Origin: a virus
IMG/VR virus record: IMGVR_UViG_3300025864_000012
Coordinates: 30,143-94,142 of that record
Length of the DNA stretch: 64,000 bases
Direction: 5' to 3' (one strand)
The position numbers and the translations under genes were made by a program. This document shows, piece after piece, positions 270 to 29,859 of the stretch (position 1 is its first letter; each line of letters begins with the position of its first letter). A model generated the notes under the pieces. That model ran no database searches. It was given only the letters and a program-made list of their open reading frames with translations, and was not told the DNA's origin.

Positions 270-1316
270 TTACCTCGCTTTCGAGTCGTACTCCCTCAAT
301 GGGGAGTCTTCATTGAGATGATTGAGAACCAGGTTGTAGACAACATCTCCCCGCAGTTTGCTCCAGTGCAGCCGCACCGCGATGCCTTGCACTATCTCCG
401 CTCCCACGATAGCGTGGTCGATGTAGTTCTTCTGCATGACCTCGACACCATCCCGCAGAAACGTCTTGTTTTTTTCGCGGGCTACGAAGGGCTTGCCGAC
501 GTCATGGAGCAGGGCTGCCCATCTCAGCTCCGGAGATCCGTGAGTGGCCGCCGCCTCCACCACCGCCATGGTGTGCCCCCACAGCGTCTTGCTGTGATAC
601 GGAGTTTGCTGATCGTACCCAGCCTGAATCGAGACCTCGGGCAGGATGAACTTGAGAATACCGATGGACTGCGCCATCATCAGGCCGATGCTCGGTTGAT
701 CGCACATCAGAATGGCGTCAAGCTCGGGCACCCAGCGGTTGCGACTCACGTTGACGATGCTTGGCGCGCAACGCGCCGCTGCCGCTGTCGTCTCACCGTG
801 GACGTTGAAGTCCAGCTTGGCAGCGAAGCGACAAAGCCGCAACAGCCGCAACGGATCCTCCTTGAACCGCTGGCGCGCATTGCCTACCGCCCGAAGCACC
901 CCGTCCATGAGGTCGTCAATTCCACCCTGGGGGTCATGCACGGCCAGCGTGTCGGCGTCCATCGCCATCGCGTTGATGGTGAAGTCACGACGCGCAAGAT
1001 CGTCCTCGAGGGTCGCTGCAAAGCTCACCTCTGGATGACGTGAACCCGGGGTATACTTCTCGGTCCGAAAGGTGGTGATCTCTACCTGCTGGCCATCAAC
1101 GCGCATACCCAACGTACCATGCTTGTCGCCGACATGATACACCTTTCGGCCAGCGGACTCAATGAGCGCCTCCACCTCAGGGGGGAGCAGTGGCGTACAG
1201 AAGTCATAGTCCTTCGGGGTGACCCCCTGCGTGATGTCGCGCACGGCACCACCGACCAGATAGGACGGGTAGATCACCGACCTGACTTCCTTTACGATTT
1301 CAACCCAGTCAGCCAT
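270..1316 (-). CDS. cca: class II tRNA nucleotidyltransferase (CCA-adding enzyme) with HD domain
   Basis: Motifs LVGGAVRD, DYD, EITTFR, DLARRDFTINAMA, EDPLRLLR; C-terminal LLHDVGK HD motif. Confidence 0.92.
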   Translation of the reverse strand: MADWVEIVKEVRSVIYPSYLVGGAVRDITQGVTPKDYDFCTPLLPPEVEALIESAGRKVYHVGDKHGTLGMRVDGQQVEITTFRTEKYTPGSRHPEVSFAATLEDDLARRDFTINAMAMDADTLAVHDPQGGIDDLMDGVLRAVGNARQRFKEDPLRLLRLCRFAAKLDFNVHGETTAAAARCAPSIVNVSRNRWVPELDAILMCDQPSIGLMMAQSIGILKFILPEVSIQAGYDQQTPYHSKTLWGHTMAVVEAAATHGSPELRWAALLHDVGKPFVAREKNKTFLRDGVEVMQKNYIDHAIVGAEIVQGIAVRLHWSKLRGDVVYNLVLNHLNEDSPLREYDSKAR

Positions 1317-1322
1317 GCCTTC

Positions 1323-1985
1323 TCAGTTCATTCTCCGAATCGCCAACAAAACGCTGTTGATGGTATCGTAGTCCGGTTCGTCCGGCAGAGAAGTCTTACA
1401 ACTATCAATCCTGCGAATATGCCGGTCTACGTAGCTCTCGATGAATTCTAACTCTTCATGGCCCATGTTGTAAATAGCATCTTTCTCACTTTCCGGCACA
1501 ACGGGGTCAAGCACGCCAGTCGTCAAGAGCTGCTCGCACTGAAACAGCAGGCGAACAATGTGCCGGGCGTGCTTCATGTAGCGGTTCTTTACTTTCGACT
1601 CGAAGTAGTCGCCTTCGTGCGATCGAAGCTTGCGAATCTGCTGGTGAACATAGCCGCCGTAAGTCTGGCGCACACGCGTCGAGAGGAAGGCGTCTCGCGC
1701 CTCAAGAATCATGACCCCCTCTAGCGTCAATGTCCCGTACTTTGGAATGAACAGCAACTCCAAGATACTCGGGTTAGCCTGCGCGGCGAGCCGCATGTAT
1801 TTTTCCACCTCGTAGGTGGTACCCTCCTTGTTGCCCTCAGACCAGACGATTTGCTCCTTGGGCTTCTTCAATGAAAGAACCTGAGCGGTGGGGGCCACGT
1901 AAACCCCCTTGTAGTCGAAATCGCTCGCATCCGTGGCGAACCCATATAGCCTACTCCCCACGAGGCCGTTGAGGATCACGCGCAT
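1323..1985 (-). CDS. Pol-beta superfamily nucleotidyltransferase (RlaP/YcgL-like)
   Basis: GSRLYG...SDFDYKG motif, ANPSILELLF, and K...H..RLL helix typical of this family. Confidence 0.8.
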   Translation of the reverse strand: MRVILNGLVGSRLYGFATDASDFDYKGVYVAPTAQVLSLKKPKEQIVWSEGNKEGTTYEVEKYMRLAAQANPSILELLFIPKYGTLTLEGVMILEARDAFLSTRVRQTYGGYVHQQIRKLRSHEGDYFESKVKNRYMKHARHIVRLLFQCEQLLTTGVLDPVVPESEKDAIYNMGHEELEFIESYVDRHIRRIDSCKTSLPDEPDYDTINSVLLAIRRMN

Positions 1986-2401
1986 AGCCGCCTGCCCTCC
2001 CCAATAGCATCTACCTCCGCTGCCAAGTCCCAGTCCCCGCGCCTCAGAGCGCTCTCAAGAACTGCATGCTCTGAAGTTGTCAGGGCAATAAGGTTCTCCG
2101 GGGAGTCATTATGCTTGTTGCCGTCCCTGTGGTGAATGTTGTACTTGCGGCCACTCTCCTCAATCGGAACCTGACCCCAAGCAGCTTCGTAGACCCTGGC
2201 GCAATAGCGTTGGTTGGCGCGCCAGTCCGGGCCGTGCAGTTTTTCCCTCGTCTCCGGACTGAGTTTCCTTCCAAGGCTGGCGGTACTTATCTTCGCCCGC
2301 ATCTCCTGGCTCAGCTCGCGCCCAAGGCAATTCTGATTACCCGTCATAGCGACACGCAGTTTCGCCCGAGACGCATCCGTGTGGTGACTGCCCTTCCTCA
2401 C
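1976..2401 (-). CDS. NUMOD3-repeat HNH endonuclease (copy 1)
   Basis: Three H/S.ETRAK-type NUMOD3 repeats plus IHHRDGNKHNDSPENLIALT...H. Confidence 0.85.
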   Translation of the reverse strand: MRKGSHHTDASRAKLRVAMTGNQNCLGRELSQEMRAKISTASLGRKLSPETREKLHGPDWRANQRYCARVYEAAWGQVPIEESGRKYNIHHRDGNKHNDSPENLIALTTSEHAVLESALRRGDWDLAAEVDAIGEGRRLCA

Positions 2402-2444
2402 AGAGACCTCGAGACCATGAACATCTCATCCACCATGATGGCCC

Positions 2445-2687
2445 TCACCCTGCGGAACCGCACATACAATCGGCCGCCCATACCATTAGTTCGTCGTCAA
2501 GTCCAAGGCGCTGGGCCAAAGCGAACGCTCCTGCCTCGATGAACACGACGCCCTGCATACCCTCTGCAAACCCCAGACCACGCACAGTTACGAATCGAAC
2601 CCGCCCCATGTCAAGCCCGGCGGTTGTCAGCTGCCGCTTCCTGTAATCTGCTCGTTCTCGCGTGAGGCAAACAAAGATGATGTCCAT
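2445..2687 (-). CDS. hypothetical protein
   Basis: Starts immediately after the radical SAM stop. Confidence 0.5.
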   Translation of the reverse strand: MDIIFVCLTRERADYRKRQLTTAGLDMGRVRFVTVRGLGFAEGMQGVVFIEAGAFALAQRLGLDDELMVWAADCMCGSAG

Positions 2688-3533
2688 TTATCTCGCTCCC
2701 ATTGCCCTCGCGGCCCCAAACATCTCCTCCACCGTGCCCTGTATCGGGATGCGTATGGGGCTGGTGCTGGAGGGGCCGAATTGATACTGTACCAGGTCAA
2801 TATACATAGAGTACTGCCCGTCAGCACCCATATACATCTCACCCCAGTTCTCGGCGCTGAAGAAGCGCCGCACATCGAGCTGTTCTAGCGCGAGGTTGTC
2901 GAACGCGATGGTGGTGCGGCTGACGTACTTCCCTATGCACATCTCCCATTCGCGCAGCCGGAACTCGACGTCCTTGCTGTAGTGCGCCAGACCGCGCCCC
3001 TTCTTCTTGTATCCCATCACCAAGAGGCGAGGGAAATCCAGACAACGCTCCATGTCATCAAGGCTATGCACCCCGGCGATCAGATGGACGACACAGTTGT
3101 CGCGCTTCTCCATGAAGCTCCGGATCTCATCGTGCAACTCCGGCACATAGGAGATTCCGATGGCGGTGGGCCGAAGGTAGTCGGGGAAGTCAGGCAGATG
3201 CCGTGCGTTCACAGTCAGATTGCAGATGAGGTGCGGTAGCAATGCGGAAAGGTCGCTCAACTCCCGAGAGACCAGGAGGGGGTTGCCACCGCCGATGGCA
3301 AGCTCCACGCCGGGCGGTAGCTCACGGAACAGTACGATAGCATCCCTAAGGCGAAACGATGCTCCGTCTGGATGCGAATCCTCGTGGCAGAAGGGACAAG
3401 CGGCGTCACAGGCGTTCGTCACCTTGACGTCAATGCTCTCGGGGTACTGCGGAACGAACACATCACCGAAGCGATGCTTGGTGCCATCGTCCTCAATCAG
3501 AACCTCGTATGTGCCATTCTGATAGCACCACAT
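2688..3533 (-). CDS. radical SAM protein (likely start MWCYQNG at 3533)
   Basis: CDAACPFCHE CxxxCxxC motif, GGGNP motif; ATG 1 nt after upstream TGA. Confidence 0.88.
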   Translation of the reverse strand: MWCYQNGTYEVLIEDDGTKHRFGDVFVPQYPESIDVKVTNACDAACPFCHEDSHPDGASFRLRDAIVLFRELPPGVELAIGGGNPLLVSRELSDLSALLPHLICNLTVNARHLPDFPDYLRPTAIGISYVPELHDEIRSFMEKRDNCVVHLIAGVHSLDDMERCLDFPRLLVMGYKKKGRGLAHYSKDVEFRLREWEMCIGKYVSRTTIAFDNLALEQLDVRRFFSAENWGEMYMGADGQYSMYIDLVQYQFGPSSTSPIRIPIQGTVEEMFGAARAMGAR

Positions 3534-3534
3534 T

Positions 3535-3963
3535 TCAGTGGTTGTCGTTGTCGATGATGACGAAGTTCCCGCGTCCGAAGATGAACGCCTTGAGGTTCTC
3601 TTTGCTGTCGAAGACGTCCGCGTCGGTGATGACCCCCACCGACTGATGGTCGATGTACCCCGCCTTGTCCCACCCAGACACCTCGACAACGAACCGCACA
3701 GGCACCTTGGTGTACTCCTCGATGACCTTGCGGAGCATCTCAAGCTGCCAATCTTGCCCGTAGTTGGCGGCGTGCGTGTAGGCATACGACGCCTTCTCGC
3801 CCCACGAGTGCAGCTCTTCGTAGCCCCAGCCGTATTCACCCGGCTCAATGGCGATTTCTGTGCCAGGTTGAACAGCCACCGGCTCGAAGTCGGTCGTTGA
3901 CCCAGTGATAACCGAGTGCGACGACGATGAGTTGGTCTCAAACATGCTCCTTCGAATGGGCAT
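3535..3963 (-). CDS. FETNSSSSHS-motif protein, partner of the radical SAM enzyme
   Basis: AGGAGGA RBS before MPIRRSMFETNSSSSHS; YIDHQS and IIDNDN motifs; coupled to radical SAM gene. Confidence 0.8.
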   Translation of the reverse strand: MPIRRSMFETNSSSSHSVITGSTTDFEPVAVQPGTEIAIEPGEYGWGYEELHSWGEKASYAYTHAANYGQDWQLEMLRKVIEEYTKVPVRFVVEVSGWDKAGYIDHQSVGVITDADVFDSKENLKAFIFGRGNFVIIDNDNH

Positions 3964-3989
3964 CGCGATCCTCCTGTGGTGGTATTTTG

Positions 3990-4463
3990 TCATGAGCTTC
4001 CTCTCGCTGCAAGCGCGCACGGTTGGCGCCTGCTCTCACCGACGGCATCCACCTCAGAAGCCAAGTCCCAGTCTCCGTGCTCCAAAGCGCGCCCAAGTAT
4101 GGCGTGCTCTGAACGGGTCAAGGCGATGAGATTCCCTGGATCATCGTTTTGACGATCCCCGTCGCGGTGATGTATGTCGTACACACGACCGCTGTCCTCG
4201 AGCGGTATCTGACCCCAGGCACCTTCGTATGCCCCAGCGTAGTGGCACCTATGAGTGTGGTAGTCCGGACCCCTATTGGCGGCACTTATTTTCGCCCGCG
4301 CCTCCGAACCGAGCTCGTGCCCGAGGGCATTCTGGTTCCCCATTCGGGCGGCGCGCAGATTCGCCCTTGTCTCCTCCGTTGGGTTAGCAGCGTTCTGATT
4401 GCCCATCCGGGCGATGCTCATCTTCGCCCGCGTCTCGGCCGTATGGTGACTACCCTGCTTCAC
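3990..4463 (-). CDS. NUMOD3-repeat HNH endonuclease (copy 2)
   Basis: NUMOD3 repeats plus IHHRDGDRQNDDPGNLIALT...H; paralogue of 1976..2401. Confidence 0.85.
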   Translation of the reverse strand: MKQGSHHTAETRAKMSIARMGNQNAANPTEETRANLRAARMGNQNALGHELGSEARAKISAANRGPDYHTHRCHYAGAYEGAWGQIPLEDSGRVYDIHHRDGDRQNDDPGNLIALTRSEHAILGRALEHGDWDLASEVDAVGESRRQPCALAARGSS

Positions 4464-4762
4464 TACCGCAGCACCCGCCTGAGCTCGTCGACATAGCGCA
4501 TCATCTTCCGCTCGGGCTCGCCTTCGGGCCAGGGCTCGGTCGTCAACACCAACTTGTCAGGGTCGTCCCCGGCGAAATAGCGCGTCACGAGCTCAGTGGT
4601 GACGCAGTCCATCGCGAAGCCCCACTCCTCCTCCGTCGCTCCCGTGGGGAAGGGATAGCAGATGGTGTGCCGAAAGAACGACTCGGCCAGCGCCCGGTGC
4701 CGCAAGTTCAGCTTGGCAATCTTTTCACGCAATTCACGCACGACCTCGTCCTGGTCTGCCAC
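4463..4762 (-). CDS. hypothetical protein
   Basis: GTG start coupled to upstream TAG. Confidence 0.6.
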   Translation of the reverse strand: MADQDEVVRELREKIAKLNLRHRALAESFFRHTICYPFPTGATEEEWGFAMDCVTTELVTRYFAGDDPDKLVLTTEPWPEGEPERKMMRYVDELRRVLR

Positions 4763-4914
4763 TACTTCGCTCCCTTCTTCTTCCTTCTCTTCTCGCGGCT
4801 GATGACGAGCTTCAAGACCTCGTTGAGTGTTTCCTCCCACGGTTTACGATTGTGAAACGAGAGCCGCTCCGCCAACGCCTTGGCAACCTCTTGCCACTTT
4901 TCGGCCTCAGTCAT
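4762..4914 (-). CDS. small basic hypothetical protein (MTEAEKWQEVAK..., 50 aa)
   Basis: Fills the gap with overlapping start/stop; below ORF-track cutoff. Confidence 0.55.
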   Translation of the reverse strand: MTEAEKWQEVAKALAERLSFHNRKPWEETLNEVLKLVISREKRRKKKGAK

Positions 4915-5323
4915 CGAAACCCCGCCTCCAGAGGTGACCGCAGTGCTTGAGGGCCCTCATTATCGCAATCACTCTCTTAGGCCAGCCCGGCAGGGGTTCC
5001 GCGAGCACGTCCTCGGCGCGGGCGCGGTAGTCGTTGAGTGCGTTGGCCGCGTCTCGAATACCGCGACGGTATGCGTCCCGTTCCCGTTCCCGCTCCCGCC
5101 CCTCCGGCGTAGCCTCGGCCTGCCTAAGTGAAGCCTCCAGCTCCTCGATGCGAGCGAGGAGCTCCTGGACTACGCCCAACCCGAGAAGGAGCCACGACTC
5201 GCGCTTCTTCTCGTACCATGCTTGGTGGTTGCCGCAGGCCATACCGCCCCGCCATGTTATGCGGTTGATAAGGAACGCAGTGCGCTCCAGCCCCATCTCC
5301 TGCAACTCCTCAGGCTTCTTCAC
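4907..5323 (-). CDS. hypothetical coiled-coil protein
   Basis: Coupled ORF. Confidence 0.6.
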   Translation of the reverse strand: MKKPEELQEMGLERTAFLINRITWRGGMACGNHQAWYEKKRESWLLLGLGVVQELLARIEELEASLRQAEATPEGRERERERDAYRRGIRDAANALNDYRARAEDVLAEPLPGWPKRVIAIMRALKHCGHLWRRGFDD

Positions 5324-5606
5324 AAAAAACCTCCACGACCCGACACATAGCGTTGGGAGAATTGGTGTGCTCGTTCACTTCTGGTCCGAGAATCGCGGCC
5401 TTGCGCCACACCGACTTGTATGGATCGCCCCAATCGTCTTCCGTATATTCCCACTCAAAGCGCACGGCATCGGCTGGCGCGAAGTCAACGTGCGCCTCGC
5501 ACCAGACCATGAACTCACTGCGCCGATAGGCGAAGTCGGCTATGTGAAACGGGACACCGTCGCCGCAGCCCGCGATACAACAAGGATGGTTGTAGCAGTC
5601 ACACAT
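5310..5606 (-). CDS. Cys-rich hypothetical protein
   Basis: MCDCYNHPCC N-terminus; coupled ORF. Confidence 0.6.
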   Translation of the reverse strand: MCDCYNHPCCIAGCGDGVPFHIADFAYRRSEFMVWCEAHVDFAPADAVRFEWEYTEDDWGDPYKSVWRKAAILGPEVNEHTNSPNAMCRVVEVFCEEA

Positions 5607-7358: not shown

Positions 7359-7362
7359 GCCG

Positions 7363-7879: not shown

Positions 7880-8626
7880 TCAACGCACTTCGTCCACGAC
7901 TCCGAGGCGGAGACTTTCGTCCGAGTCTAGCCACCAGTCCTTGCGGCGCCACCTGTTCGCGAACTGCCTGACGGTCAAACCGGTCTTGGGCTGGGCCTCC
8001 AGTGACCTCTTACTGAAGATGTTGAGAACGCGATCCTGGATTTTTCTGACGAAGGCTACCTCGTCCTCCACCTCGCCGATCTTGCCGCCCGCACCGAAGC
8101 TAACTTCATGGATCAGGACGTAAGCCTCGCGTCCCATCACGCGCGTGTCGCCGGCTTGCAGCAGTATCCCGGCCATGCTCGCCGCGTAGCCGATAGCGAC
8201 CGTCGTGATCTTGTGGCCCTTGCCACGCAGGAACATCAGGTAATCGAACAGCGCCATGCCCGCGATGACCTCGCCGCCGGGGCTATTTAGGATGATCTCG
8301 ATGTCGCACTTCGGCGCGTCTCTGTTCCAAAACGACAGCTCCCTGACGCATGTCGCAACGGACGACTCGCTGACCCTGCCGAGGAACTGATAGACATGGT
8401 GGTAGCTGTCCTCGGCCAACTCGCGCTTGTGCAACTCCCGTAACCGCTGCACGTGGATGGCTTCACACTGGGCGTCATACTCGGCCTTCAGCGCCTCGGC
8501 TGACATCTTGCGCGCCTCGGCATCGTTCTTCGCCGCCGCAGAAAGTGCCGCAACGGCCTCAGCCTGCGCCTTGGCAACGTTGGCCTCGATTTCTTCGGGG
8601 CTGAGCTCCCTTTCTTTGTCTGCCAT
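7880..8626 (-). CDS. clpP: ClpP-family serine protease with N-terminal helical extension (copy 1)
   Basis: NSPGG, AASMA (Ser), IHE (His), RKDWWL..E.L..G.VDE (Asp). Confidence 0.88.
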   Translation of the reverse strand: MADKERELSPEEIEANVAKAQAEAVAALSAAAKNDAEARKMSAEALKAEYDAQCEAIHVQRLRELHKRELAEDSYHHVYQFLGRVSESSVATCVRELSFWNRDAPKCDIEIILNSPGGEVIAGMALFDYLMFLRGKGHKITTVAIGYAASMAGILLQAGDTRVMGREAYVLIHEVSFGAGGKIGEVEDEVAFVRKIQDRVLNIFSKRSLEAQPKTGLTVRQFANRWRRKDWWLDSDESLRLGVVDEVR

Positions 8627-11211: not shown

Positions 11212-11691
11212 TCATGTTTGGCGCCTACTCTCCCCAATAGCGTCTATCTCAGACGCCAGGTCCCAGTCCCCGCGCCTCAGTGCGCGCTCAAGCTTGGAAT
11301 GCTCGGAATTGGTCAAAGCGATGAGGTTCTCCGGATCATCGTTCTGGCGGTTACCGTCACGGTGGTGGATGTTGTACCCATGCCCGTTTTCCTCGCGTGG
11401 TATCTGGCCCCAGGCGTTTTCATAGACCTTGGCGCAGTAGCGTTTATTGGCGCGGTAGTTCGGGCCTCTCCTGGCGGTGCGTATTTTCGCGCGCGTCTCC
11501 GGGCTATGCTCGTGTCCAAGGCTGTTCGTATTCCCCATCAGCGCGGCGCTCGTTTTCGCCCGCGCCTCCGAGCTGGGTTTCCTTCCGAGGCTGGCGGCGC
11601 TCATCTTCGCCAGCGTCTCGGGGCTGGGATCCTTTTTAGCGGCGCTTATTTTCGCCTTGGTCTCAGCCGTGTGGTGGCTACCTATTCTCAT
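11212..11691 (-). CDS. NUMOD3-repeat HNH endonuclease (copy 3)
   Basis: Four NUMOD3 repeats plus IHHRDGNRQNDDPENL; ATGA-coupled start MRIGSHH. Confidence 0.85.
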   Translation of the reverse strand: MRIGSHHTAETKAKISAAKKDPSPETLAKMSAASLGRKPSSEARAKTSAALMGNTNSLGHEHSPETRAKIRTARRGPNYRANKRYCAKVYENAWGQIPREENGHGYNIHHRDGNRQNDDPENLIALTNSEHSKLERALRRGDWDLASEIDAIGESRRQT

Positions 11692-12014
11692 GGCTGGCCA
11701 GACGCGGTGTGGACCCTTACCCCCGGTGGGGAATAGCGCCGCAGAAGCTCCACAATGTTCTGCCACCCTACCGGGTTCCTACTGTGGACATAGATGTCTT
11801 TCGGCCAATTCGGCATTGGCGGCGGACCGTCCGGAAGAATACCGACCATCCACTTCGCAATGTCGTACCCACTCTGTCCTTCTCCAAGGTCGTGATCGAG
11901 AGACAGGACATCGACGTCACCTCCATACAACCAAAGAGTGGCCTCGAAGAAACACGTGGCTAGCACCCACGTGTCGTCAGGTTTCGGGCGCATGTCATCG
12001 ACCCACAGCTTCAC
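11688..12014 (-). CDS. cyclic-phosphate-processing receiver-domain protein (cREC-like)
   Basis: KLWVDDMR...LSLDHDLG...GYD...VHSRNPVG signature; GTGA-coupled start. Confidence 0.8.
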   Translation of the reverse strand: MKLWVDDMRPKPDDTWVLATCFFEATLWLYGGDVDVLSLDHDLGEGQSGYDIAKWMVGILPDGPPPMPNWPKDIYVHSRNPVGWQNIVELLRRYSPPGVRVHTASGQP

Positions 12015-12451
12015 CCTGCCTCCAATACTCTCACTATTTCCCTCGCCGCTTCCCCGGATTGTATCACGGACGATGGGTAGCGCAGGACTTTCCATCCAAG
12101 AATTGCGGCCCGATTGTACTTCGCGCAGTCTTCAGAGAATCCCGAAGGCGTCAAATGACGACTCTTGCGCACCTTGCCGTCCCCTCCCCGCTGCCCATGC
12201 CCCTCAGTGCCGCCCTCGCACTCTACGGCCAACATGCGGTCTGGCCACGAGAAGTCAAATCTCCACTGACGGTCCGGCGTGGCGAATCTGTGCTCACGGA
12301 TGGGCATGGGGCACCCCCACCCCGCTAAGTCGCCGGCAAGTTTGTTCTCCAGCTTCTCACGCTTCGCCTTCGCTACGGCTCGCTTGACTTGTTCCGGGGT
12401 CAGGGGCGCTTGCTTACAAGAGCGCAAGCGACCTGTCATCTTACCCGCCAA
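12011..12451 (-). CDS. PD-(D/E)XK (Vsr/DUF559-like) endonuclease
   Basis: REHRF...WRFDF.WP...AVE.EGG...H...D..KYN.A..LGW. Confidence 0.75.
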   Translation of the reverse strand: MAGKMTGRLRSCKQAPLTPEQVKRAVAKAKREKLENKLAGDLAGWGCPMPIREHRFATPDRQWRFDFSWPDRMLAVECEGGTEGHGQRGGDGKVRKSRHLTPSGFSEDCAKYNRAAILGWKVLRYPSSVIQSGEAAREIVRVLEAG

Positions 12452-12814
12452 TCACTTCTTCTTCAGAAGCTTGACGCACCTGGGGCCGATCCGAACCTTA
12501 GCCCCGGGAGTGACCGCCATCTTCTTGTCGGGCTCGAAGGTCACTGTCGTGCCACAGGCATACTCGCCCGTAGCACGCTCGACCCAAACGCCCGTCTTGA
12601 GATCGCGCTCCCGCTCAGAGCCCTCCTTGACCAGCGGCGCGAAACATAGGTGACAACGTGATGCAACCAACTTGTGCTCCATTCCGGGGACCAAATACCC
12701 CCTGAAGTCGACTTCCGGGTATGAACCAACGCCAACGCTCATGTTCACCTCACGCAGAGATACGACCATGTTATCAATACCACCGAACAACAGGCCGTTT
12801 GTGTCAAGGATCAA
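12452..12814 (-). CDS. hypothetical protein
   Basis: Coupled ORF with CHLC and CG motifs. Confidence 0.55.
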   Translation of the reverse strand: MILDTNGLLFGGIDNMVVSLREVNMSVGVGSYPEVDFRGYLVPGMEHKLVASRCHLCFAPLVKEGSERERDLKTGVWVERATGEYACGTTVTFEPDKKMAVTPGAKVRIGPRCVKLLKKK

Positions 12815-13497
12815 GTCTGATCCTGGTCTTTGTCGACAACAGCCCCGACGTCGGTCAAGTTGGTGACGTTCTGATCCGTCCAGTCCGCACCAGTCTGGCG
12901 AGCCGCGACCGTCGACACAGAGACAGCCCCATAGGACTGGCCATACGTAGTGCCTTGCGTGTTGAAGGCTATAGTGCCAAGCTGACTGCCCTGCTGCATG
13001 GCCTCCTCAGCGGCGGCCAGGAAGATGAACTCCCAGCCTTCTAGTTTGCGCTCGGCGATAAGCGACTTGGTGCGAGCGAGATCCCACTCGCGGGAAGAGT
13101 TCTCGAAGCCGTCCGTGACGATGGCGACCACCGTCTTGCCCTTGTAGCTCTGCTTCTTCTGCCGCTCTGAGACGGTCGTGACCGTCTTACCGATCGCGTC
13201 ATAGAGGGCCGTCATGCCACGGGGGACAAGGGTGTAGCTGGGCACCGTCTTGACATCAATGCCATCGTGGATGAGGTCGTACTCGCTGTCGAACTGCGCC
13301 AGTGTGATGGTGCCCGAGGCCTCAACCTTGCGCTGCTCTTTGAGAAAGGTGTTGAGGCCACCCTCGGCATCATCCCTGCAGGAGCCCATCGACCCAGAGC
13401 GGTCTACAATCACCACAATCTCGATTGGCTCGACTGTCTCCTTCTTGGACTTCGCCTTCTTTTTCATCTTCCCCTCCGGATTGCTTTTGATCATCAT
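12811..13497 (-). CDS. VWA-domain protein
   Basis: MIDAS DRSGSM, TALYDAIG, IVTDGFENSS. Confidence 0.85.
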   Translation of the reverse strand: MMIKSNPEGKMKKKAKSKKETVEPIEIVVIVDRSGSMGSCRDDAEGGLNTFLKEQRKVEASGTITLAQFDSEYDLIHDGIDVKTVPSYTLVPRGMTALYDAIGKTVTTVSERQKKQSYKGKTVVAIVTDGFENSSREWDLARTKSLIAERKLEGWEFIFLAAAEEAMQQGSQLGTIAFNTQGTTYGQSYGAVSVSTVAARQTGADWTDQNVTNLTDVGAVVDKDQDQT

Positions 13498-23625: not shown

Positions 23626-23631
23626 TTCTAT

Positions 23632-23823
23632 CTACCTCCTGATGCCGCAATCCTTAGTAATGAACTCGCACTTCTTGCGCCGCTGGAGCATGAGGCGCAT
23701 ATGCTCTGGTGCCTGTTCGATGGCCGCTTCTATGGCCCCCTTCCGATCATAGGCTTGGACTTGTTGGTTGAGAAGTCCCTTGACGATGACCTCCCATTCA
23801 TGTATGGCGCGACGACGTGACAT
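23632..23823 (-). CDS. small hypothetical protein
   Basis: GAGG RBS, 63 aa. Confidence 0.55.
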   Translation of the reverse strand: MSRRRAIHEWEVIVKGLLNQQVQAYDRKGAIEAAIEQAPEHMRLMLQRRKKCEFITKDCGIRR

Positions 23824-23837
23824 GCCAGGGCCCTCCT

Positions 23838-24593
23838 CTACCTGATCTCGTCCACGAGACCGTACTTCAGCGCCGTCTCGGAGTCAATCCACCAATCCTT
23901 GCGTTTCCAGTTCTTGATGAAGGAGGCCCTGGTGATCTTGCCTCTAGAGCGGTTGACAAAGATATCGGTGATGTGCTTCTGGATTTGCTCCACCCAAGCC
24001 ACGGTATCTTTGACGTCGCCCATCTTACCCTCTGTTTCGAAGCTTGCTTCATGAATCAAAAGCGAGGCCTGCCGCCCCATGACCCGCGTGGAGCCCGCCT
24101 GCAAAAGAATGGCCGCCATCGAGGCAGCCCAGCCGCGTGCTACGGTCGTGACCTCATGCCCGTTGTCAACGAGCGAGCTGACGTAGTCGTACAGAGCCAT
24201 GCCGGCCACAATGTGGCCACCACCGCTCATGATCTCCAGTTCTATGTCGCATCCCGGGTCAGAACGCGACCACAATGTCAACATGGCAACACATTGCTCC
24301 ACGGATTCGTCAGTGACATTACCCATGAAGCGGTAGACTTTGAAGTGGTGGTCTGAGAAGGTGAATGCCTTGTGACACTCCTCGTACTCGGCTAGCCCCA
24401 TCTCAGCCTGACGGGCGGTGCAGCGGGCCGTCCGGGCATTCGCTTTTGCCTCTGCGCCCTCAGCAGCCAGCTTGCGAGCCAACACCCTCTCCCTTAGGGC
24501 CTCAGCGCGACTCTTCTCCGCTTTGGCCATCTTCGTCTGGAATTCGGCTTCGATCAAGCGCGGGTCGGTCGGGGTGACTGGAACATCAGACAA
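23838..24593 (-). CDS. clpP: ClpP-family serine protease with N-terminal helical extension (copy 2)
   Basis: SGGG, AASMA, IHE, RKDWWI..E.ALKYGLVDE; clear paralogue of 7880..8626. Confidence 0.88.
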   Translation of the reverse strand: MSDVPVTPTDPRLIEAEFQTKMAKAEKSRAEALRERVLARKLAAEGAEAKANARTARCTARQAEMGLAEYEECHKAFTFSDHHFKVYRFMGNVTDESVEQCVAMLTLWSRSDPGCDIELEIMSGGGHIVAGMALYDYVSSLVDNGHEVTTVARGWAASMAAILLQAGSTRVMGRQASLLIHEASFETEGKMGDVKDTVAWVEQIQKHITDIFVNRSRGKITRASFIKNWKRKDWWIDSETALKYGLVDEIR

Positions 24594-24710
24594 TATGGCC
24601 CTCCTTGAGTTGTGGTCATGCTAACGCCAAGCGCAAAGCCGAACAACTGATGGATCCCCGTGAACCACAGGGCAACCGTGGCCCCCACTGGGCCGCCGGT
24701 CACATCCATA

Positions 24711-24739
24711 ATGTTACTCCCACCGACGGTCTGTGTAAA
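24711..24739 (-). promoter_or_regulatory. promoter TTTACA-N17-TAACAT
   Basis: Exact spacing, upstream of clpP copy 2. Confidence 0.65.
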
Positions 24740-24806
24740 GGGGCAATTCTCACCATCCTCTGTGAAACCTCCTAGTTCCCGTTCTAGAAGCGCGGTGCTG
24801 TGGTTC

Positions 24807-24835
24807 ATCTTACACCATTGTCGTCCCAATGTAAA
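24807..24835 (-). promoter_or_regulatory. promoter TTTACA-N17-TAAGAT
   Basis: Exact spacing, just downstream of a terminator. Confidence 0.65.
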
Positions 24836-24848
24836 TGGCCCGGACACG

Positions 24849-24891
24849 AAAAACGGGCCGGACCAACCAAAAGGTCAGTCCGGCCCGTTTC
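24849..24891 (-). terminator. intrinsic terminator
   Basis: AAACGGGCCGGAC/GTCCGGCCCGTTT stem with U-tract on the minus strand after the holin-like gene. Confidence 0.8.
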
Positions 24892-24909
24892 AATGATCAG
24901 GCAGTTATG

Positions 24910-25110
24910 TTAGAACTTGGTGTCTGGCCAGATGGCCTTCTTGATACCATAGAGCACGCCGCCGCCGATCAAGGCGATGGTCGCGTTCTCCACGCCGACG
25001 CTCTCGAGATTGCCGGGGTTCGCCAACCAAGCTACGCCTGCCCCGATGAGGGGAAAGACGATCGTCCAAAAGGCGCGGATGAGTGCAGCCTGAAGGAGTT
25101 TCCAGTTCAT
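24910..25110 (-). CDS. holin-like small membrane protein
   Basis: 66 aa, two TM helices, ALIRAFWT motif reminiscent of actinophage holins, basic C-terminus. Confidence 0.55.
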   Translation of the reverse strand: MNWKLLQAALIRAFWTIVFPLIGAGVAWLANPGNLESVGVENATIALIGGGVLYGIKKAIWPDTKF

Positions 25111-25112
25111 TG

Positions 25113-25238
25113 TCACCTCCTTCTACGGTTACGAATAAACAGGACGCCGTAGAACACAAGGCCCACGCCGATGACGAATGGAGCGACTATGAGGGCGTTC
25201 TGTGTCTCTTGCCACCAGAGGTTGAAGTCGAAGCTCAT
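25113..25238 (-). CDS. small membrane peptide (41 aa)
   Basis: ATGA-coupled; TM helix followed by RNRRRR. Confidence 0.5.
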   Translation of the reverse strand: MSFDFNLWWQETQNALIVAPFVIGVGLVFYGVLFIRNRRRR

Positions 25239-26140
25239 TGTGCCCCTGATTCGAACGCTTGCTCCGCGAGCTTCTCCTTGTACCATTCCGGCAGGCCAAA
25301 CGTCGCACGGCGCATCAGCTCAGGGCTGAACTCTTGCCAGAGGAACTTGAGGATCGCGTCACGCTCTTCCTCAGCGATGTCACGCTTGGCCTCGGCTATG
25401 AGCTTACCAATGTCCCTTGGTGAATTCTCGAGCTCCCCGTTGTCCCTGAGGTGCTGGACCGCCTTCTCGAAGCGGGCATCAGTGCGGAATCCATCTTTGA
25501 AAGCGTCCCACTTCCCCTTGGAAGTGTTCTCCTTGCTCCAGCCGCTGATGTGCTTTTCCTTGAACGCCTCACTGACAAACTTGCCGCACATGAGGGGGAT
25601 AGGCTGGCCACCTAGGAGGAAGGGGCGAGCATAGTTCTTGACGACTACGCCCTCTACCTTCGTCCCACCAAGGTAGCTGTCAGTCTCGAGCATGGCCTTC
25701 AGCTCATCGGCTGACTTTATCAGCCCCTGATAAATCAGAGGTACAGCCTCAAGGTCGATACTGCCGGCCAGTTCCGCAAGCTCCTCGTACTCCGAAACGA
25801 AGGTGTCACCGGGCGTGGAGGCACCGAAGATGACGATGTGGTTCCGGGGGATGCGCTGGTAGCAGAGCGTGTTGTGCTTGGGCTTCCTCAGGTACTCGCC
25901 GTAGAACAAGATGTCGTTAGGCAGGTCGACGCTGTGGACATAGTCCCAGGCATCCATGAACATTTTATCAACAGCACCCTCGTACTGCTCCTTGCCCTTG
26001 GAGCGACACTTCGCTTCGCCGTTCACGCGGCCAAACACGAATTGGCTTCCGTCAATTTTCTCGGTGATTTCTACTTCGTCCAGAAACAAATCGGCGATAT
26101 AGTCTTGGCCCACTGCAAATATTTTAGGAAAGGCGTGCAT
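25235..26140 (-). CDS. ATP-dependent RNA ligase, Rnl2-like
   Basis: FPKI N-terminus, motif I TEKIDGSQF, YGE, IFG, VP.IY.G, EGVVVK, K.VSEAFKE. Confidence 0.82.
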   Translation of the reverse strand: MHAFPKIFAVGQDYIADLFLDEVEITEKIDGSQFVFGRVNGEAKCRSKGKEQYEGAVDKMFMDAWDYVHSVDLPNDILFYGEYLRKPKHNTLCYQRIPRNHIVIFGASTPGDTFVSEYEELAELAGSIDLEAVPLIYQGLIKSADELKAMLETDSYLGGTKVEGVVVKNYARPFLLGGQPIPLMCGKFVSEAFKEKHISGWSKENTSKGKWDAFKDGFRTDARFEKAVQHLRDNGELENSPRDIGKLIAEAKRDIAEEERDAILKFLWQEFSPELMRRATFGLPEWYKEKLAEQAFESGAQ

Positions 26141-26143
26141 GAT

Positions 26144-26761
26144 TCAGTCCCAGAGGCTGCCGTAGTTGTTGATGAAGAGCAGGAAGCCGTCATGGTGCAT
26201 ACGCTCAAGCTCGCGTTCTGCTTCACTCTCCCCGTGCCAGCCATACTCGTTGAGCAGCGCCCACGCCGCAAACCCATCGGCCATGCGATTCAGCGCGTCA
26301 CGCCACGCCACCATACCGTCTCCGCCCTCCTCTGTCTCTTCGGAAGTCTCAGGGTCGTAGTCCATCGAGTAAATGGCCCTGCCATCGGGTCCGAGAATCT
26401 GAGCGGGATGGCCATGCTCCTTCTCGGCAAGGTGACGCAACGCGTCTGGAAGCCACCCGGCAAGATAATGATCCAGGCCCCACCAATCCTGCTGACCCCA
26501 ACCATGGAGGCCACGAAGGTAGAAGTTCTTCAGCGCACCCCACCAATAGAGATGAACGACCTGATCGCGCACAAATCGATAGACAGTCCAATACCTGTCG
26601 TGAAGCCAATCATACCAATGCTTCTCATCGTTGTCGGCAAAGATTCGGTCAAGGCCATCCGACCTTCCCGCCGCAATGCGCGCACGAGACTCATCGCGCC
26701 ACTTGAGATGGCGCTCGTCCCATTCCTTCATTAGCTGTTCGGATGCTTCTTGAAGATTCAC
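26144..26761 (-). CDS. conserved phage hypothetical protein
   Basis: W.LD.YLA...P.AL...GHP...W...L..M..GF...GF.LF...Y..LWD pattern. Confidence 0.7.
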   Translation of the reverse strand: MNLQEASEQLMKEWDERHLKWRDESRARIAAGRSDGLDRIFADNDEKHWYDWLHDRYWTVYRFVRDQVVHLYWWGALKNFYLRGLHGWGQQDWWGLDHYLAGWLPDALRHLAEKEHGHPAQILGPDGRAIYSMDYDPETSEETEEGGDGMVAWRDALNRMADGFAAWALLNEYGWHGESEAERELERMHHDGFLLFINNYGSLWD

Positions 26762-26823
26762 GAATTCCCCCCACTAGCTAAAGAAGTGACCACGACAACA
26801 AGGTTACCCAGAGTCACACTCGA

Positions 26824-26852
26824 AGTATACGCTAAATGTTGGTAGATGTAAA
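26824..26852 (-). promoter_or_regulatory. promoter TTTACA-N17-TATACT
   Basis: Exact spacing; would drive the 26144 gene and RNA ligase. Confidence 0.7.
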
Positions 26853-26859
26853 GACTTCC

Positions 26860-27044
26860 GGCAGGACTCTCAGTCCCTGCATCACTTTCGTACGCGGTGC
26901 TCCGACAGATGACCAACTGTCCCGGTTTGGTTGTCCCTACTGAGGGCTGGTGGCGGTCGTTGCCGCCACAGTCGTTTTGTTCTGAGCACATGCGGTACGT
27001 GGTCGAAGAGAGCTTCTCCACCTCGGATGCCTATCTTCACGGCT
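26860..27044 (-). ncRNA. candidate structured ncRNA 3' of tRNA-Asn
   Basis: Nested helices GCATC/GATGC, CGTAC/GTACG, GTGCTC/GAGCAC, GTGGCGG/CCGCCAC, and a GCAGGGAC/GTCCTGC hairpin. Confidence 0.4.
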
Positions 27045-27120
27045 TGGCTGGCGCGGCAGGCATCGAACCTGCGACCGCTCCGGTAACAGCGGAGTGCTCT
27101 ACCTGCTGAGCTACGCGCCA
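27045..27120 (-). tRNA. tRNA-Asn(GTT)
   Basis: 76-nt cloverleaf, anticodon loop CT-GTT-AC, G73, encoded CCA. Confidence 0.95.
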
Positions 27121-27122
27121 AT

Positions 27123-27212
27123 TGGCGGATGAGGTAGGATTCGAACCCACGGAGCTGTTACGCTCGGCTGTTTTCAAGACAGCTGCCTTCAACCAGACTC
27201 GGCCACTCATCC
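27123..27212 (-). tRNA. tRNA-Ser(TGA)
   Basis: Long variable arm, loop CT-TGA-AA, G73, CCA. Confidence 0.95.
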
Positions 27213-27213
27213 T

Positions 27214-27299
27214 TGGCGGATGGAGCAGGATTCGAACCTGCGACGGTGTGACCCGTTGCGGCTTAGCAAGCCGGTGCCTTACCTCTCGGCCATCCATCC
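27214..27299 (-). tRNA. tRNA-Ser(GCT)
   Basis: Long variable arm, loop TT-GCT-AA, G73, CCA; C27-C43 mismatch. Confidence 0.92.
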
Positions 27300-27303
27300 T
27301 TAG

Positions 27304-27392
27304 TGGTGAGCAGGGTAGGATTCGAACCTACAGGAGACCCAGTCTCAACGAGGTTACAGCCCGCCGCGACGCACCGTCTTCGCCGCCCGCTC
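27304..27392 (-). tRNA. tRNA-Tyr(GTA)
   Basis: Long variable arm, loop CT-GTA-AC, A73, CCA; C at position 8. Confidence 0.9.
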
Positions 27393-27395
27393 AAT

Positions 27396-27476
27396 TGGTG
27401 GAGGCGGCCGGAATCGAACCGGCGTCCTCGGGTTGCCCATCAGGCCCTAGCCCAAGTCGATACCATTATCGCCCCC
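27396..27476 (-). ncRNA. tmRNA-like RNA consisting only of the tRNA-like domain (81 nt)
   Basis: GGGGGCG/CGCCTCC acceptor with G3-U70, A73, CCA; stemless D-loop ATAATGGTATCGAC; GAC-GCCGG-TTCGATT-CCGGC T arm; only about 30 nt between D and T regions. Confidence 0.8.
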
Positions 27477-27479
27477 ATT

Positions 27480-27665
27480 TGGCAGCGGCCCCCGATTCTT
27501 CCTGCCGCTACCGTGCGAACCCCTGAATCGTCTCGACCCTGCTGGGGGTCAGGTCCGCGCCCGTCCCGAGACTTCAAGCCAAGCCAAAGGCCGCAGCCGA
27601 CGACTTGGCGCCCGGGGGCCGACTCACGTTGCGACGGTACCAGCTACGCCGTCGTGGTCGGCAGG
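27480..27665 (-). ncRNA. candidate structured RNA, possibly a detached tmRNA mRNA-like domain
   Basis: Closing helix CCTGCCG/CGGCAGG, two pseudoknot-compatible pairings, frame AKSSAAAFGLA* (27609-27574), ends in CCA 3 nt before the tRNA-like domain. Confidence 0.4.
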
Positions 27666-27666
27666 T

Positions 27667-28002
27667 TCAAGGCATCATGGCATCCTTACTGCACTTGGGG
27701 CAGAGGAGATGCCCGAGCCATTCACAGATAATGTCACTCGACAGTTCGTCGCCGCCATACATGGCCCCGAGAACGTTTAGGCATTCCTCTTCGTCATCCT
27801 CGGCGAACAGAACCCCGCAGTTAGGGCACATCACGGTGTAGTCAACGAATCCCGGATGATCGTCCGCGAACACCCGCAGCGCCGCCACGAAGTTTCCGCC
27901 AAGGTGCCGGAGCGGCCCCATGTCGTTGCACATCTCCAGCATCCGCAGTTCCAGCGGCTTCAGCACGTGGTCGTCGGGTACGGCGCGGATGTCAGTCACC
28001 AT
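27667..28002 (-). CDS. Zn-binding hypothetical protein
   Basis: CPNC...CPKC; coupled start. Confidence 0.55.
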   Translation of the reverse strand: MVTDIRAVPDDHVLKPLELRMLEMCNDMGPLRHLGGNFVAALRVFADDHPGFVDYTVMCPNCGVLFAEDDEEECLNVLGAMYGGDELSSDIICEWLGHLLCPKCSKDAMMP

Positions 28003-28127
28003 GCGACGAAACCGGCCCACGCCGCCGCGCATGCCCATCCCGCAGCCGCATCGAGGTTGTGCCGCCACAGACTCAAGGCGGCGTTCAGTGCGAAGACGAC
28101 TACGGCGATGGTGGCGATGGTAGTCAT
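27996..28127 (-). CDS. small membrane protein (43 aa)
   Basis: ATGA-coupled, two hydrophobic segments. Confidence 0.5.
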   Translation of the reverse strand: MTTIATIAVVVFALNAALSLWRHNLDAAAGWACAAAWAGFVAW

Positions 28128-28585
28128 TCGAGACTCCCGGAGGTCGGGTACACGACGGCACTGGCCAGCCCCTGCAACGTCTCCTCAAACCGACGCTCCG
28201 GCGACCACGAGTACATCTCTGAGCCGTGGTCGACGTACCCCCTGTGGAACCTGGCCCGCGCCGTCTTCAGAATTATGCCGTAGTGGTCGTCGATGAGGTT
28301 GTGCAGGTTGTCCAGTGCCTGTTCGGCCAGCGACTCGAATAGGAACTCCTGCACCGGGAACGGGACGCTAAAGCTTTGGAGTGCGTCCAAAGTCGGGTCC
28401 AAAGTGTCCAGTGTTTTGTCCACCTCGCCGTAGTCAATGTCCGTGACCGCGCCGCACTCGGGGCACTGATCACGGTCGTCCGGGCTGTCATTCTGTTCGC
28501 GCAACACGTCAGAATCAGATAGGTTGTGCGAATGAATTGACGTGGGCGCTTCGCACTCAGACAGCCAATGCAGGAATCCCACCAC
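28124..28585 (-). CDS. hypothetical protein with CPEC motif
   Basis: ORF fills the gap; acidic. Confidence 0.5.
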   Translation of the reverse strand: MVGFLHWLSECEAPTSIHSHNLSDSDVLREQNDSPDDRDQCPECGAVTDIDYGEVDKTLDTLDPTLDALQSFSVPFPVQEFLFESLAEQALDNLHNLIDDHYGIILKTARARFHRGYVDHGSEMYSWSPERRFEETLQGLASAVVYPTSGSLE

Positions 28586-28618
28586 ACCCCCAGTGGATAG
28601 CGTTTGGGGCAGACACCA

Positions 28619-29296
28619 TCAGTACGCCGTTTGTGCCCACGGTCCCCAGCCCTCTTTGAGCCAGAGCTTGCAGGCTTCCCGTAGGTTGTACTCGGCGGTG
28701 TAGAGCAGGCCCCAGAAGCGAAAGGCAACATGCTCGCGCCACATCTGCATCAGGCCTCTGAAGAAGCCGCCGTTCTCCTCTCCAGCACGCTCACGTCCAC
28801 TCGACTCGCGCATAATGACCTGGCTCAGCTTCGACCACGACGATGCCGGCCACCCAACCCAGCGGGCCAGCGGCAGCCACCGGATACCGTTCGAGGTGCC
28901 ACCCGGGTGCAGCATCTTATCTCGGCCAGCATGGGACTTCTTCTGCCAATCCTTCGCCTGGGAGCGCCACGTCCTTAGCGCCTTTTCCCAAGTCGCTTTG
29001 AGATGAGCACCACGAGGGACCGCCCGCACTTGTGTTGGCATGAGGGCGCGGAAGCACGCCCGGACGCGGCAGAGGCTGCGCCTCGCGCGGTGCGCAGCCC
29101 CCTTCGCCTTGAGGGCCCTGACCATCAGCTCAGAGCTGGCGAGCTCAGGGTTCGGCGTCACGGTGGGACTCGCGCTTGGCGACCCAGATGGCAACGGCTC
29201 CGAGGAACCCGCCGCGTTGGGGCCTATCACGATAATCACCATGACGAGGAACAACAGGACGAGAACGAGGACAACGCCAATTAGTCGAACCTTCAC
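28619..29296 (-). CDS. membrane-anchored/secreted lytic transglycosylase (SLT/Rpf-like)
   Basis: N-terminal TM; RESSG catalytic Glu, GLMQ, N...A..L....GWGPW. Confidence 0.8.
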   Translation of the reverse strand: MKVRLIGVVLVLVLLFLVMVIIVIGPNAAGSSEPLPSGSPSASPTVTPNPELASSELMVRALKAKGAAHRARRSLCRVRACFRALMPTQVRAVPRGAHLKATWEKALRTWRSQAKDWQKKSHAGRDKMLHPGGTSNGIRWLPLARWVGWPASSWSKLSQVIMRESSGRERAGEENGGFFRGLMQMWREHVAFRFWGLLYTAEYNLREACKLWLKEGWGPWAQTAY

Positions 29297-29337
29297 CTTG
29301 GACCTCCCTGGTCTTTTGCTGAATGCTCTATGTTACC

Positions 29338-29859
29338 TTATTTTGCGCCTCTTGTATAGGCCCCGCACCTTTCTTCTATCTGCTCAATAGACACGGGGTA
29401 GTATTTGCGTCCGTCCCACTCGGTGTCCACCCCTACATCAAACCGCATGCGCAGGCGTGAATCGAGGTGTTCTGGCAGCGGCTTACCGTGCGAGTGGCCA
29501 TGCAGCATCACGGTGTTCGGCCGCCAGGAAAGCCACGGATAGTGACAAACATAGTAGTGGCACTTATTGTGCCGAAAGTCTAGCGCCAGCGGATCGTGCC
29601 TCACCTTCGGATCGTGATTCCCCTTCACCCAGTGCACCGTACATGCGCTTTCCAGCGCAGCGGCGTATGCCCTGAACGTCTCTGGACGGAAGGCGAAGTC
29701 TCCTAGAACATACAGCTCGTCCGAAGGCCGAACCGTCTCTAGGGCATTCGCCAGAAGCGTACTGTTCATCTCGCCGACAGAATGGAACTCGTGGCGCTGC
29801 TTCTGCAGCCATTCGGCCCAGTGGTCGAGGTGGAAGTCTGCGATAAGCAGGATGGTCAC
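29338..29859 (-). CDS. calcineurin-like metallophosphoesterase
   Basis: ADFH, LGDF, GNHD, CHYP, HGHSH, DVGVD. Confidence 0.9.
   Translation of the reverse strand: MTILLIADFHLDHWAEWLQKQRHEFHSVGEMNSTLLANALETVRPSDELYVLGDFAFRPETFRAYAAALESACTVHWVKGNHDPKVRHDPLALDFRHNKCHYYVCHYPWLSWRPNTVMLHGHSHGKPLPEHLDSRLRMRFDVGVDTEWDGRKYYPVSIEQIEERCGAYTRGAK

Follow-up and report, generated by a model that had tools for sequence, protein, structure and literature searches.

We analysed a set of predicted RNA-repair genes in the genome of an uncultured phage with a siphovirus-like gene order, represented by the IMG/VR virus record IMGVR_UViG_3300025864_000012. The stretch under study (the window, 64,000 nucleotides) corresponds to genome positions 30143-94142, i.e. 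the right-hand 64 kb of this record. Six proteins had been named in the window by an initial annotation: a CCA-adding enzyme, the RNA-ligase-associated nucleotidyltransferase RlaP, the receiver-like protein cREC, the RNA ligase RtcB, an ATP-dependent RNA ligase, and a metallophosphoesterase (MPE). All of these scored above the Pfam gathering thresholds with PHROG in agreement, and the catalytic motifs were kept in 6 of 6 (Table 1). The genome size suggested by the window had to be corrected, as the complete genome comprises 94 kb (94,142 bp, 60% G+C, 100% complete according to CheckV). The minus strand carries nearly all genes from window position ~31,000 leftwards to genome position ~11,600.

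Families were called with Pfam gathering scores and PHROG scans on open reading frames (ORFs), tRNA-type genes with ARAGORN and Rfam, and gene neighbourhoods in other phages were taken from IMG/VR loci. The labels G001, G002, G016, G039, L009, and L064 below denote the ligase-bearing phage records or loci that were compared. DNA of the phage occurs in peat and soil metagenomes, and no RNA dataset was among the sequencing runs listed for it. When 24.5 kb of the window were compared by megablast with 50,697 phage records, no match was obtained, and no close cultured relative exists; a scan of IMG/VR with the terminase as single protein returned a 6.8-kb fragment as the sole match.

Table 1. Repair-related genes, RNA genes and homing-type endonucleases (window coordinates, unless marked as genome).
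Feature	Position	Strand	Basis
Class II CCA-adding-type tRNA nucleotidyltransferase with C-terminal HD domain, 348 aa	270-1316	-	Pfam, motifs
RlaP (RNA-ligase-associated Pol-beta nucleotidyltransferase)	1323-1985	-	Pfam PF10127, motifs
HNH-NUMOD3 homing-type endonuclease, directly upstream of RlaP	1976-2401	-	Pfam HNH_3, NUMOD3
HNH-NUMOD3 endonuclease, further copy	3990-4463	-	Pfam HNH_3, NUMOD3
HNH-NUMOD3 endonuclease, directly downstream of cREC	11212-11766	-	Pfam HNH_3, NUMOD3
cREC (cyclic-phosphate-processing receiver-like domain protein)	11688-12014	-	Pfam PF20274, phrog_1479
RtcB 3'-phosphate/2',3'-cyclic-phosphate RNA ligase, 383 aa	16925-18076	-	Pfam PF01139, motifs
ATP-dependent RNA ligase, PF09414 superfamily	25235-26140	-	Pfam, motifs, AlphaFold2 (AF2) model
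tRNA genes Tyr(GUA), Ser(GCU), Ser(UGA), Asn(GUU), in transcription order	27045-27392	-	ARAGORN; Rfam 42-64 bits
tmRNA tRNA-like domain (mini-tmRNA), 81 nt	27396-27476	-	Rfam RF00023
Small Aq_1665-type MPE, 173 aa from GTG 29859	29338-29859	-	Pfam, PHROG, AF2 model
TROVE/Ro60-like gene, 511 aa	genome 23465-25000	-	TROVE 4.6e-20, over cut-off
YhaM-like HD 3'-5' exoribonuclease	module with Ro60-like gene spans genome 23465-26439	-	1.3e-26

Repair enzymes and RNA genes

RtcB was recognised over its full length by the Pfam model (5e-112, 375.7 bits against a cut-off of 27) and matched the solved RtcB of P. horikoshii at 3.3e-51. The metal and GMP sites were kept at D71/C74, N145/H146, H163, H251-252, and the nucleophile H308, which aligned with D95/C98, N202/H203, H234, H329, and H404 of P. 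horikoshii; the corresponding motif strings read DIGC71-74, GGGNHF, HSGSR163, HHNY, and SHGAGR. The enzyme is predicted to join 3'-phosphate or 2',3'-cyclic-phosphate ends to 5'-OH ends with GTP/Mn.

The CCA-adding enzyme matched the Pfam models PolyA_pol (2.3e-32), PolyA_pol_RNAbd (3.5e-10), and HD (9.2e-10). Motifs A to D including the EDxxR template were present (GGAVRD22, DYD36, RRD109, and EDPLR153), as was an H...HD motif. With regard to CCA specificity as against A-adding or poly(A) polymerase activity, its best NCBIfam match was the actinobacterial-type CCA enzyme with 242.7 bits, under the equivalog cut-off of 438.8, while PcnB scored 147.3 bits; CCA addition is thus a putative activity. 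The RlaP gene lies 6 nt downstream of the CCA-enzyme gene boundary. RlaP scored 100.9 bits (1.3e-28) against a cut-off of 23, and the Pol-beta motif was kept (GSRLYG10-15 and DFD22-24). Enzymes of this family append 1-2 nucleotides at RNA 3'-OH ends, and the product suits 5'-phosphate ligases and not RtcB (bioRxiv 10.64898/2025.12.29.696909). In this phage RlaP is 15-23 kb distant from either ligase.

The ORF of cREC is open to 12095, and its likely start is the GTG at 12014, which overlaps the stop of the upstream gene; this start is plausible because the cREC_REC domain begins at residue 29 of the longer ORF. The domain scored 78.5 bits (6.5e-22) against a cut-off of 27, and the receiver-type aspartates were kept (DD33-34 and D67/D69). 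The cREC family has been linked to RNA ligases in a survey of jumbo phages, where the processing of 2',3'-cyclic-phosphate ends is a prediction as well (PMC7824862). A 146-aa gene coupled to cREC was set aside; it looks DUF559/Vsr-like and is probably a mobile nuclease. This gene (12011-12451, minus strand) and the three HNH-NUMOD3 genes of Table 1 bracket RlaP, a radical-SAM-like gene, and cREC, which points to homing elements as carriers or companions of the repair cassettes.

The MPE has an ORF open to 29919, and the length of its homologues (165-175 aa) fits the start at 29859. It matched Pfam Metallophos (1.3e-06) and phrog_547 (8.5e-30), and kept the motifs DxH, GD, GNHD, and HGH. A profile of its homologues found Aquifex Aq_1665 (1xm7) in the PDB at 4.2e-25, and the same structure was the top Foldseek match of the AF2 model (pLDDT 94). 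No lambda-phosphatase-like chain appeared in the Foldseek or profile lists. Sequence and fold assign no function to this protein; its gene context makes it a candidate for RNA 3'-end healing.

All five tRNA-like genes encode CCA, as could be read directly from the sequence. Codon usage offered no rare-codon rationale for the four tRNAs. Work on colicin E5 and PtuAB has identified tRNAs for Tyr and Asn as targets of nucleases. The fifth gene, the mini-tmRNA, was matched by RF00023 with 69.9 bits against a cut-off of 47, and has the G3:U70 pair and a T arm; ~310 positions of the model are replaced by 16 nt. It contains no mRNA-like domain and no tag frame, and no SmpB was found in the complete genome. 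A longer 'permuted' tmRNA called by ARAGORN overlaps the tRNA genes and is not credible. This RNA had initially been taken for a ribosome-rescue RNA, and rescue of the tagging type cannot be assumed for a tRNA-like domain alone. A counterpart of 80 nt (65.1 bits; L081 3775-3854, minus strand) was present in G001, a 61.5-kb temperate phage that is a true relative (structural genes 33-57% identical). Its neighbour there, at a distance of ~100 nt, is a ClpP-like gene sharing 87% identity with the one at window 7880-8626. Between the two RNAs the acceptor stem has changed from G:C to C:G and the T stem from C:G to A:U, and these compensatory changes indicate that the mini-tmRNA is under selection. 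The window contains ClpP-like protease genes at 7880-8626 and at 23838-24593 (both minus strand), in the non-structural region; both proteins have ~250 aa, of which ~80 form an N-terminal extension, and they would come on top of any head protease.

Just outside the window lies a module that the first list of parts had missed, with a Ro60-like gene, a Y-RNA-like RNA, and a YhaM-like exoribonuclease gene. The 360-nt gap beside the Ro60-like gene holds a match to the YrlA tRNA mimic (L002 10251-10311, where L002 8465 equals genome 23465). With 41.2 bits (E 1.4e-6) this match stays under the gathering score of 69, and it is confined to model positions 24-84. The same gap also holds a second T-arm-like hairpin and a repeated CGTGTTGAG motif.

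Farther upstream, genome 15115-22768 (L001 15115-19906 and L002 4931-7768) holds a group of genes that looks like a DNA hypermodification module. A GmhA-like SIS protein, a GHMP kinase, and a GmhB-like HAD protein make up a heptose-nucleotide pathway in it, accompanied by a TET-associated glycosyltransferase-like protein and an FkbM methyltransferase, together with a radical SAM/SPASM protein and a peptide deformylase.

The ATP-dependent ligase and the search for a kinase

The ATP-dependent ligase scored 43.2 bits (6.1e-11) against a Pfam cut-off of 27 and matched phrog_548 'RNA ligase' at 2.5e-19. Its nucleotidyltransferase (NTase) motifs were invariant across 21 homologues (K28 in EKIDGSQ, E82, EGVVVK163-168, and K187). 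As a single sequence it found no solved Rnl at E<0.5 and no NCBIfam family at E<=0.01, and a profile of the 21 members reached only NgrRnl (Naegleria Rnl5), with an E value of 0.78. The clade numbers >5,000 metagenome proteins. We considered deriving a host from the ligase relatives found in genome bins and rejected this, as they fall into many phyla and are probably binned phage contigs.

The AF2 model of the ligase (pLDDT 79) consists of the NTase domain followed by helices at residues 191-300, without an OB fold. Foldseek placed T4 Rnl2 first (1.2e-8) and DNA ligases at ~3e-4. T4 Rnl2 also gave the only full-length alignment (242-315 columns), but with a root-mean-square deviation of ~12 Å. 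When the catalytic domain was compared with VIA-align, NgrRnl (Z 16.2) and T4 Rnl2 (Z 16.0) came first, followed by REL1, Rnl3, and Rnl1, with the DNA ligases at <=11.9; identity to T4 Rnl2 in the structural alignment was 14-16%. The protein belongs to a separate clade, and in the model its NTase domain is structurally tied between T4 Rnl2 and Naegleria Rnl5. The initial label 'Rnl2-type' is therefore reasonable for the modelled architecture, with an NTase domain and an all-helical C-terminal domain lacking OB, and does not extend to Rnl2 family membership at the sequence level. That the protein might be a DNA ligase had been raised at the outset; the model lacks an OB fold, and DNA ligases ranked below every RNA ligase family. 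The complete genome encodes no DNA ligase, neither of the ATP- nor of the NAD-dependent kind, and for this reason a nick-sealing role of the protein, though unlikely, is conceivable.

A 5' polynucleotide kinase (Pnk) had not been seen in the window, and this holds for the complete genome, which gave no AAA_33 match. When the 94,142-bp sequence was scanned in six frames for Walker A sites, the only credible one belonged to a DnaB-type helicase. Two candidates were set aside. The 205-aa gene abutting the ligase start was examined for a role as an overlooked kinase or a conserved partner of the ligase; Pfam and PHROG gave no match, none of 76 loci had a homologue close to the ligase, and its neighbours in the atlas are all 'hypothetical'. 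A HAD protein (genome 19931-20425) that matches PNK3P weakly was considered as a Pnk phosphatase, but it sits within the GmhA/GHMP-kinase/GmhB heptose pathway.

In the other phages an AAA_33 kinase above the Pfam cut-off was present in 16 of 50 ligase-bearing records, often as a ~290-aa, Pnk-sized ORF beside the ligase. These kinases mark the ligase clade as a partner in healing and sealing. We also compared the presence of RtcB with the absence of the kinase. A kinase was found in 1 of 7 RtcB-positive versus 15 of 44 RtcB-negative records, and this trend is too weak for any claim.

Gene neighbourhoods in other phages

A tblastn search of the 50,697-record phage collection returned RtcB in 703 records and cREC in 158; TROVE was present in 110 and the present ligase clade in 55. 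A chance co-occurrence of the parts is implausible. The genes were indeed found together in other phages, side by side or a few kb apart. In G001, RtcB (82% identical) and the ligase (68%) are separated by 395 bp. In G002 the CCA enzyme, RlaP, and the ligase fall inside 3.6 kb, with RlaP 1 kb from the ligase, and no tRNA gene could be detected in this record; the adjacency of the CCA enzyme and RlaP recurs in G039. In G016, ~10 kb contain RlaP, cREC, a second MPE coupled to RtcB, RtcB itself, the ligase, and an Aq_1665-type MPE (49% identical). The cREC homologue of G016 lies between RlaP and RtcB, and RlaP is within 4-7 kb of RtcB and the ligase. In addition, L009 shows the tandem order ligase, AAA_33 P-loop kinase, MPE, and in L064 a kinase and an MPE lie ~2 kb upstream of the ligase. 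Among ten genomes having both genes, the MPE family lies <=5 kb from the ligase in five. Such proximity of the parts in other phages supports a functional link between them. The G002 cluster also favours repair over maturation as the task of the CCA enzyme, since it comes without a detectable tRNA gene, and strengthens the proposal made initially on this point.

Two further loci deserve description. L064 carries at 12223-13140 (plus strand), 1.3 kb downstream of the ligase, a gene for a GluQ-RS-like class I tRNA-synthetase catalytic domain (1.1e-58). Gordonia phage Bachita (NC_030936.1; L115 6376-8514), a 93.8-kb actinophage, has RtcB, an RlaP-like gene, and cREC, and its tRNA genes follow the same order (Tyr, Ser, Ser, Asn), with two odd tRNA-like genes before them. 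Bachita was considered as a relative and rejected; its 81-nt 'undetermined' tRNA scores as a tRNA and not as a tmRNA. The shared tRNA set could reflect convergence or an old cassette.

Proposed RNA salvage, alternative readings and known systems

The presence of these genes, their family membership, their intact active sites, and their clustering in other phages are observations. We consider it likely that they form a phage-borne arsenal for the salvage of RNA, mainly tRNA, made up of small and separately exchangeable cassettes. We infer the substrates, the order of steps, and a purpose in counter-defence. The initial annotation had described a layered counter-defence toolkit. Of this picture the family calls, the functional link, and the two ligation chemistries stand, with RtcB on one side and an ATP-type lysine-adenylate ligase on the other. 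The tagging rescue RNA is not supported, and for cREC and MPE it is the gene neighbourhood that suggests end healing.

In the proposed scheme, RtcB would act as a first arm that joins 2',3'-cyclic-phosphate or 3'-phosphate ends to 5'-OH ends, for which no kinase would be needed; ends of this type are left by anticodon nucleases that cleave without metal and by similar toxins. In a second arm, the Rnl2/Rnl5-like ATP ligase would seal 3'-OH/5'-phosphate breaks. Where a break has cost one or two nucleotides, RlaP would first restore them, and the 3'-OH end that it produces would serve this ligase only. Candidates for the removal of cyclic or 3' phosphates would be the MPE, cREC, and the HD domain of the CCA enzyme. 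The CCA enzyme would rebuild trimmed acceptor ends, the four phage tRNAs would substitute for species that cannot be salvaged, and Ro60, the Y RNA, and the YhaM-like exoribonuclease probably serve to trim damaged RNA or to clear it. Because the complete genome contains no Pnk, three options exist for the second arm: it may act solely on breaks that already have a 5' phosphate, it may rely on a kinase of the host, or a kinase that has escaped recognition may assist it. The simplest reading divides the work between RtcB for 5'-OH breaks and the ATP ligase for 5'-phosphate breaks, including ends rebuilt by RlaP. The detailed version of this idea, in which two kinase-free arms sort breaks by their chemistry and RlaP, the ligase, MPE, and cREC handle breaks with a 5'-phosphate or with loss of nucleotides, is possible and rather doubtful. 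If it were true, RNA 3'-end healing would be the first function for the Aq_1665 family of MPEs. Alternatively, a non-P-loop 5' RNA kinase would be implied among the unassigned genes.

Several points weigh against the salvage reading. Co-occurrence among 50 ligase-bearing records is modest, with RtcB in 6, RlaP in 6, cREC in 1, and the CCA enzyme in 2, and these rates identify the parts as exchangeable cassettes rather than one fixed operon. In this phage the genes are dispersed over ~36 kb with homing endonucleases between them (co-regulation is not required). The nearest solved relative of the MPE, Aq_1665, is itself a protein without an assigned function, and the bacterial DNA-repair nuclease MPE/PdeM matches the phage protein distantly (8.5e-5). 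The cREC protein may instead process nucleotide signals, e.g. cyclic ADP-ribose (PMC7824862). The complete genome revealed no kinase, 2H esterase, RtcA, or archease, so that the ATP-ligase arm is incomplete on paper; without a 5' kinase, this arm alone cannot close breaks with a 5'-OH, the type that classic anticodon nucleases produce.

Some of these points would also fit a mosaic of unrelated accessory genes, acquired one by one and in part by way of homing endonucleases, in which cREC and MPE destroy cyclic-nucleotide or ADP-ribose immune signals and the ligase seals nicks in DNA or RNA-primed DNA. The lack of an ATP- or NAD-dependent DNA ligase, the homing-type genes flanking RlaP and cREC with the DUF559/Vsr-like gene before the latter, the alternative proposed for cREC besides RNA ends (PMC7824862), and the independent exchange of parts among related phages all agree with this possibility. 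However, the ligase without OB is nearer in fold to RNA ligases of every family than to DNA ligases, and its clade repeatedly adjoins Pnk-type kinases, RlaP, the CCA enzyme, and RtcB. In two phages the MPE stands in tandem with a Pnk-like P-loop protein and the ligase, and in G016 cREC lies between RlaP and RtcB. We therefore regard the mosaic as unlikely.

It appears very unlikely that the enzymes serve RNA processing of the phage itself, with RtcB rejoining or circularising hammerhead-cut transcripts and the CCA enzyme and RlaP maturing small RNAs of the phage such as the tRNAs, the mini-tmRNA, and Y RNAs: a type II hammerhead in the early region does pass the Rfam threshold (genome 6670-6735, plus strand, 40.9 bits versus 37), hammerhead cleavage leaves RtcB substrates, and a second, weak hammerhead-like match exists (genome 979-1048, plus strand, 25 bits, E 0.95), whereas G001 and G016 have RtcB yet no hammerhead at this threshold, the tRNA-like genes already encode CCA, G002 combines the CCA enzyme, RlaP, and the ligase with no detectable tRNA gene, and the literature links RlaP and cREC to ligases in many genomes.

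The salvage reading agrees with repair sets that have been described before. The survey of RNA repair in jumbo phages by Iyer, Anantharaman, Krishnan, Burroughs, and Aravind (2021, Viruses 13:63; PMC7824862) lists RtcB and/or ATP-type ligases, RlaP, the CCA enzyme, cREC, calcineurin-like and HD phosphoesterases, a Ro/TROVE protein with a tRNA-like RNA, and phage tRNAs, and reads them as a counter to attacks on translation. The present set differs from these in that a kinase is congruent with the ATP-type ligases of the jumbo phages, whereas none is present in this 94-kb non-jumbo phage, and in that its ligase falls outside Rnl1 and classic Rnl2. In addition, the survey does not use the word 'tmRNA' (PMC7824862), and this phage adds an RNA that consists of the tRNA-like domain only. 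The rsr-yrlBA-rtcBA operon of Salmonella and the rtcB-rlaP-rtcA operon of Pseudomonas likewise combine RtcB with Ro60 (Rsr), tRNA-like Y RNAs, and RlaP. Unlike in these operons, the phage genes are spread over ~36 kb, the Ro60 gene is paired with the YhaM-like exoribonuclease, and no RtcA cyclase or RtcR regulator was found in the phage genome.

In the Pnkp of Clostridium thermocellum, a kinase, a metallophosphoesterase, and a ligase are joined in one protein. L009 and L064 place the present ligase clade, a P-loop kinase, and the MPE family as separate neighbouring genes, an arrangement that parallels the three modules of Pnkp. The phage studied here differs from this enzyme, as its genes are separate, the kinase is absent, and the MPE is of the small Aq_1665 type. 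Phage T4 mends tRNA against the anticodon nuclease PrrC with Pnk and Rnl1, along with Rnl2. Both phages have an ATP-dependent RNA ligase, an RlaP-family enzyme, and a heal-and-seal logic for broken tRNA; T4 differs in having Pnk (a kinase-phosphatase), which is absent here, and in lacking the kinase-independent RtcB route. The RlaP homologue of T4 is NrdC.11 (bioRxiv 10.64898/2025.12.29.696909).

Every part of this set is thus of a kind already described in phages, and the phage is a rich, non-jumbo, and kinase-less example rather than a new system. The current view of phage counter-defence is unchanged, and the value of the genome is that of a well-characterised example and a source of enzymes. 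It demonstrates that a 94-kb peat phage can hold the full range of RNA-repair functions listed for jumbo phages, and that this repertoire is built of two- or three-gene cassettes which recur tightly clustered in unrelated phages. It also provides material for asking how RtcB-type and ATP-type ligation share their work without a kinase, whether cREC and the Aq_1665-type MPE heal RNA ends, and what role a tag-less tmRNA fragment may have.

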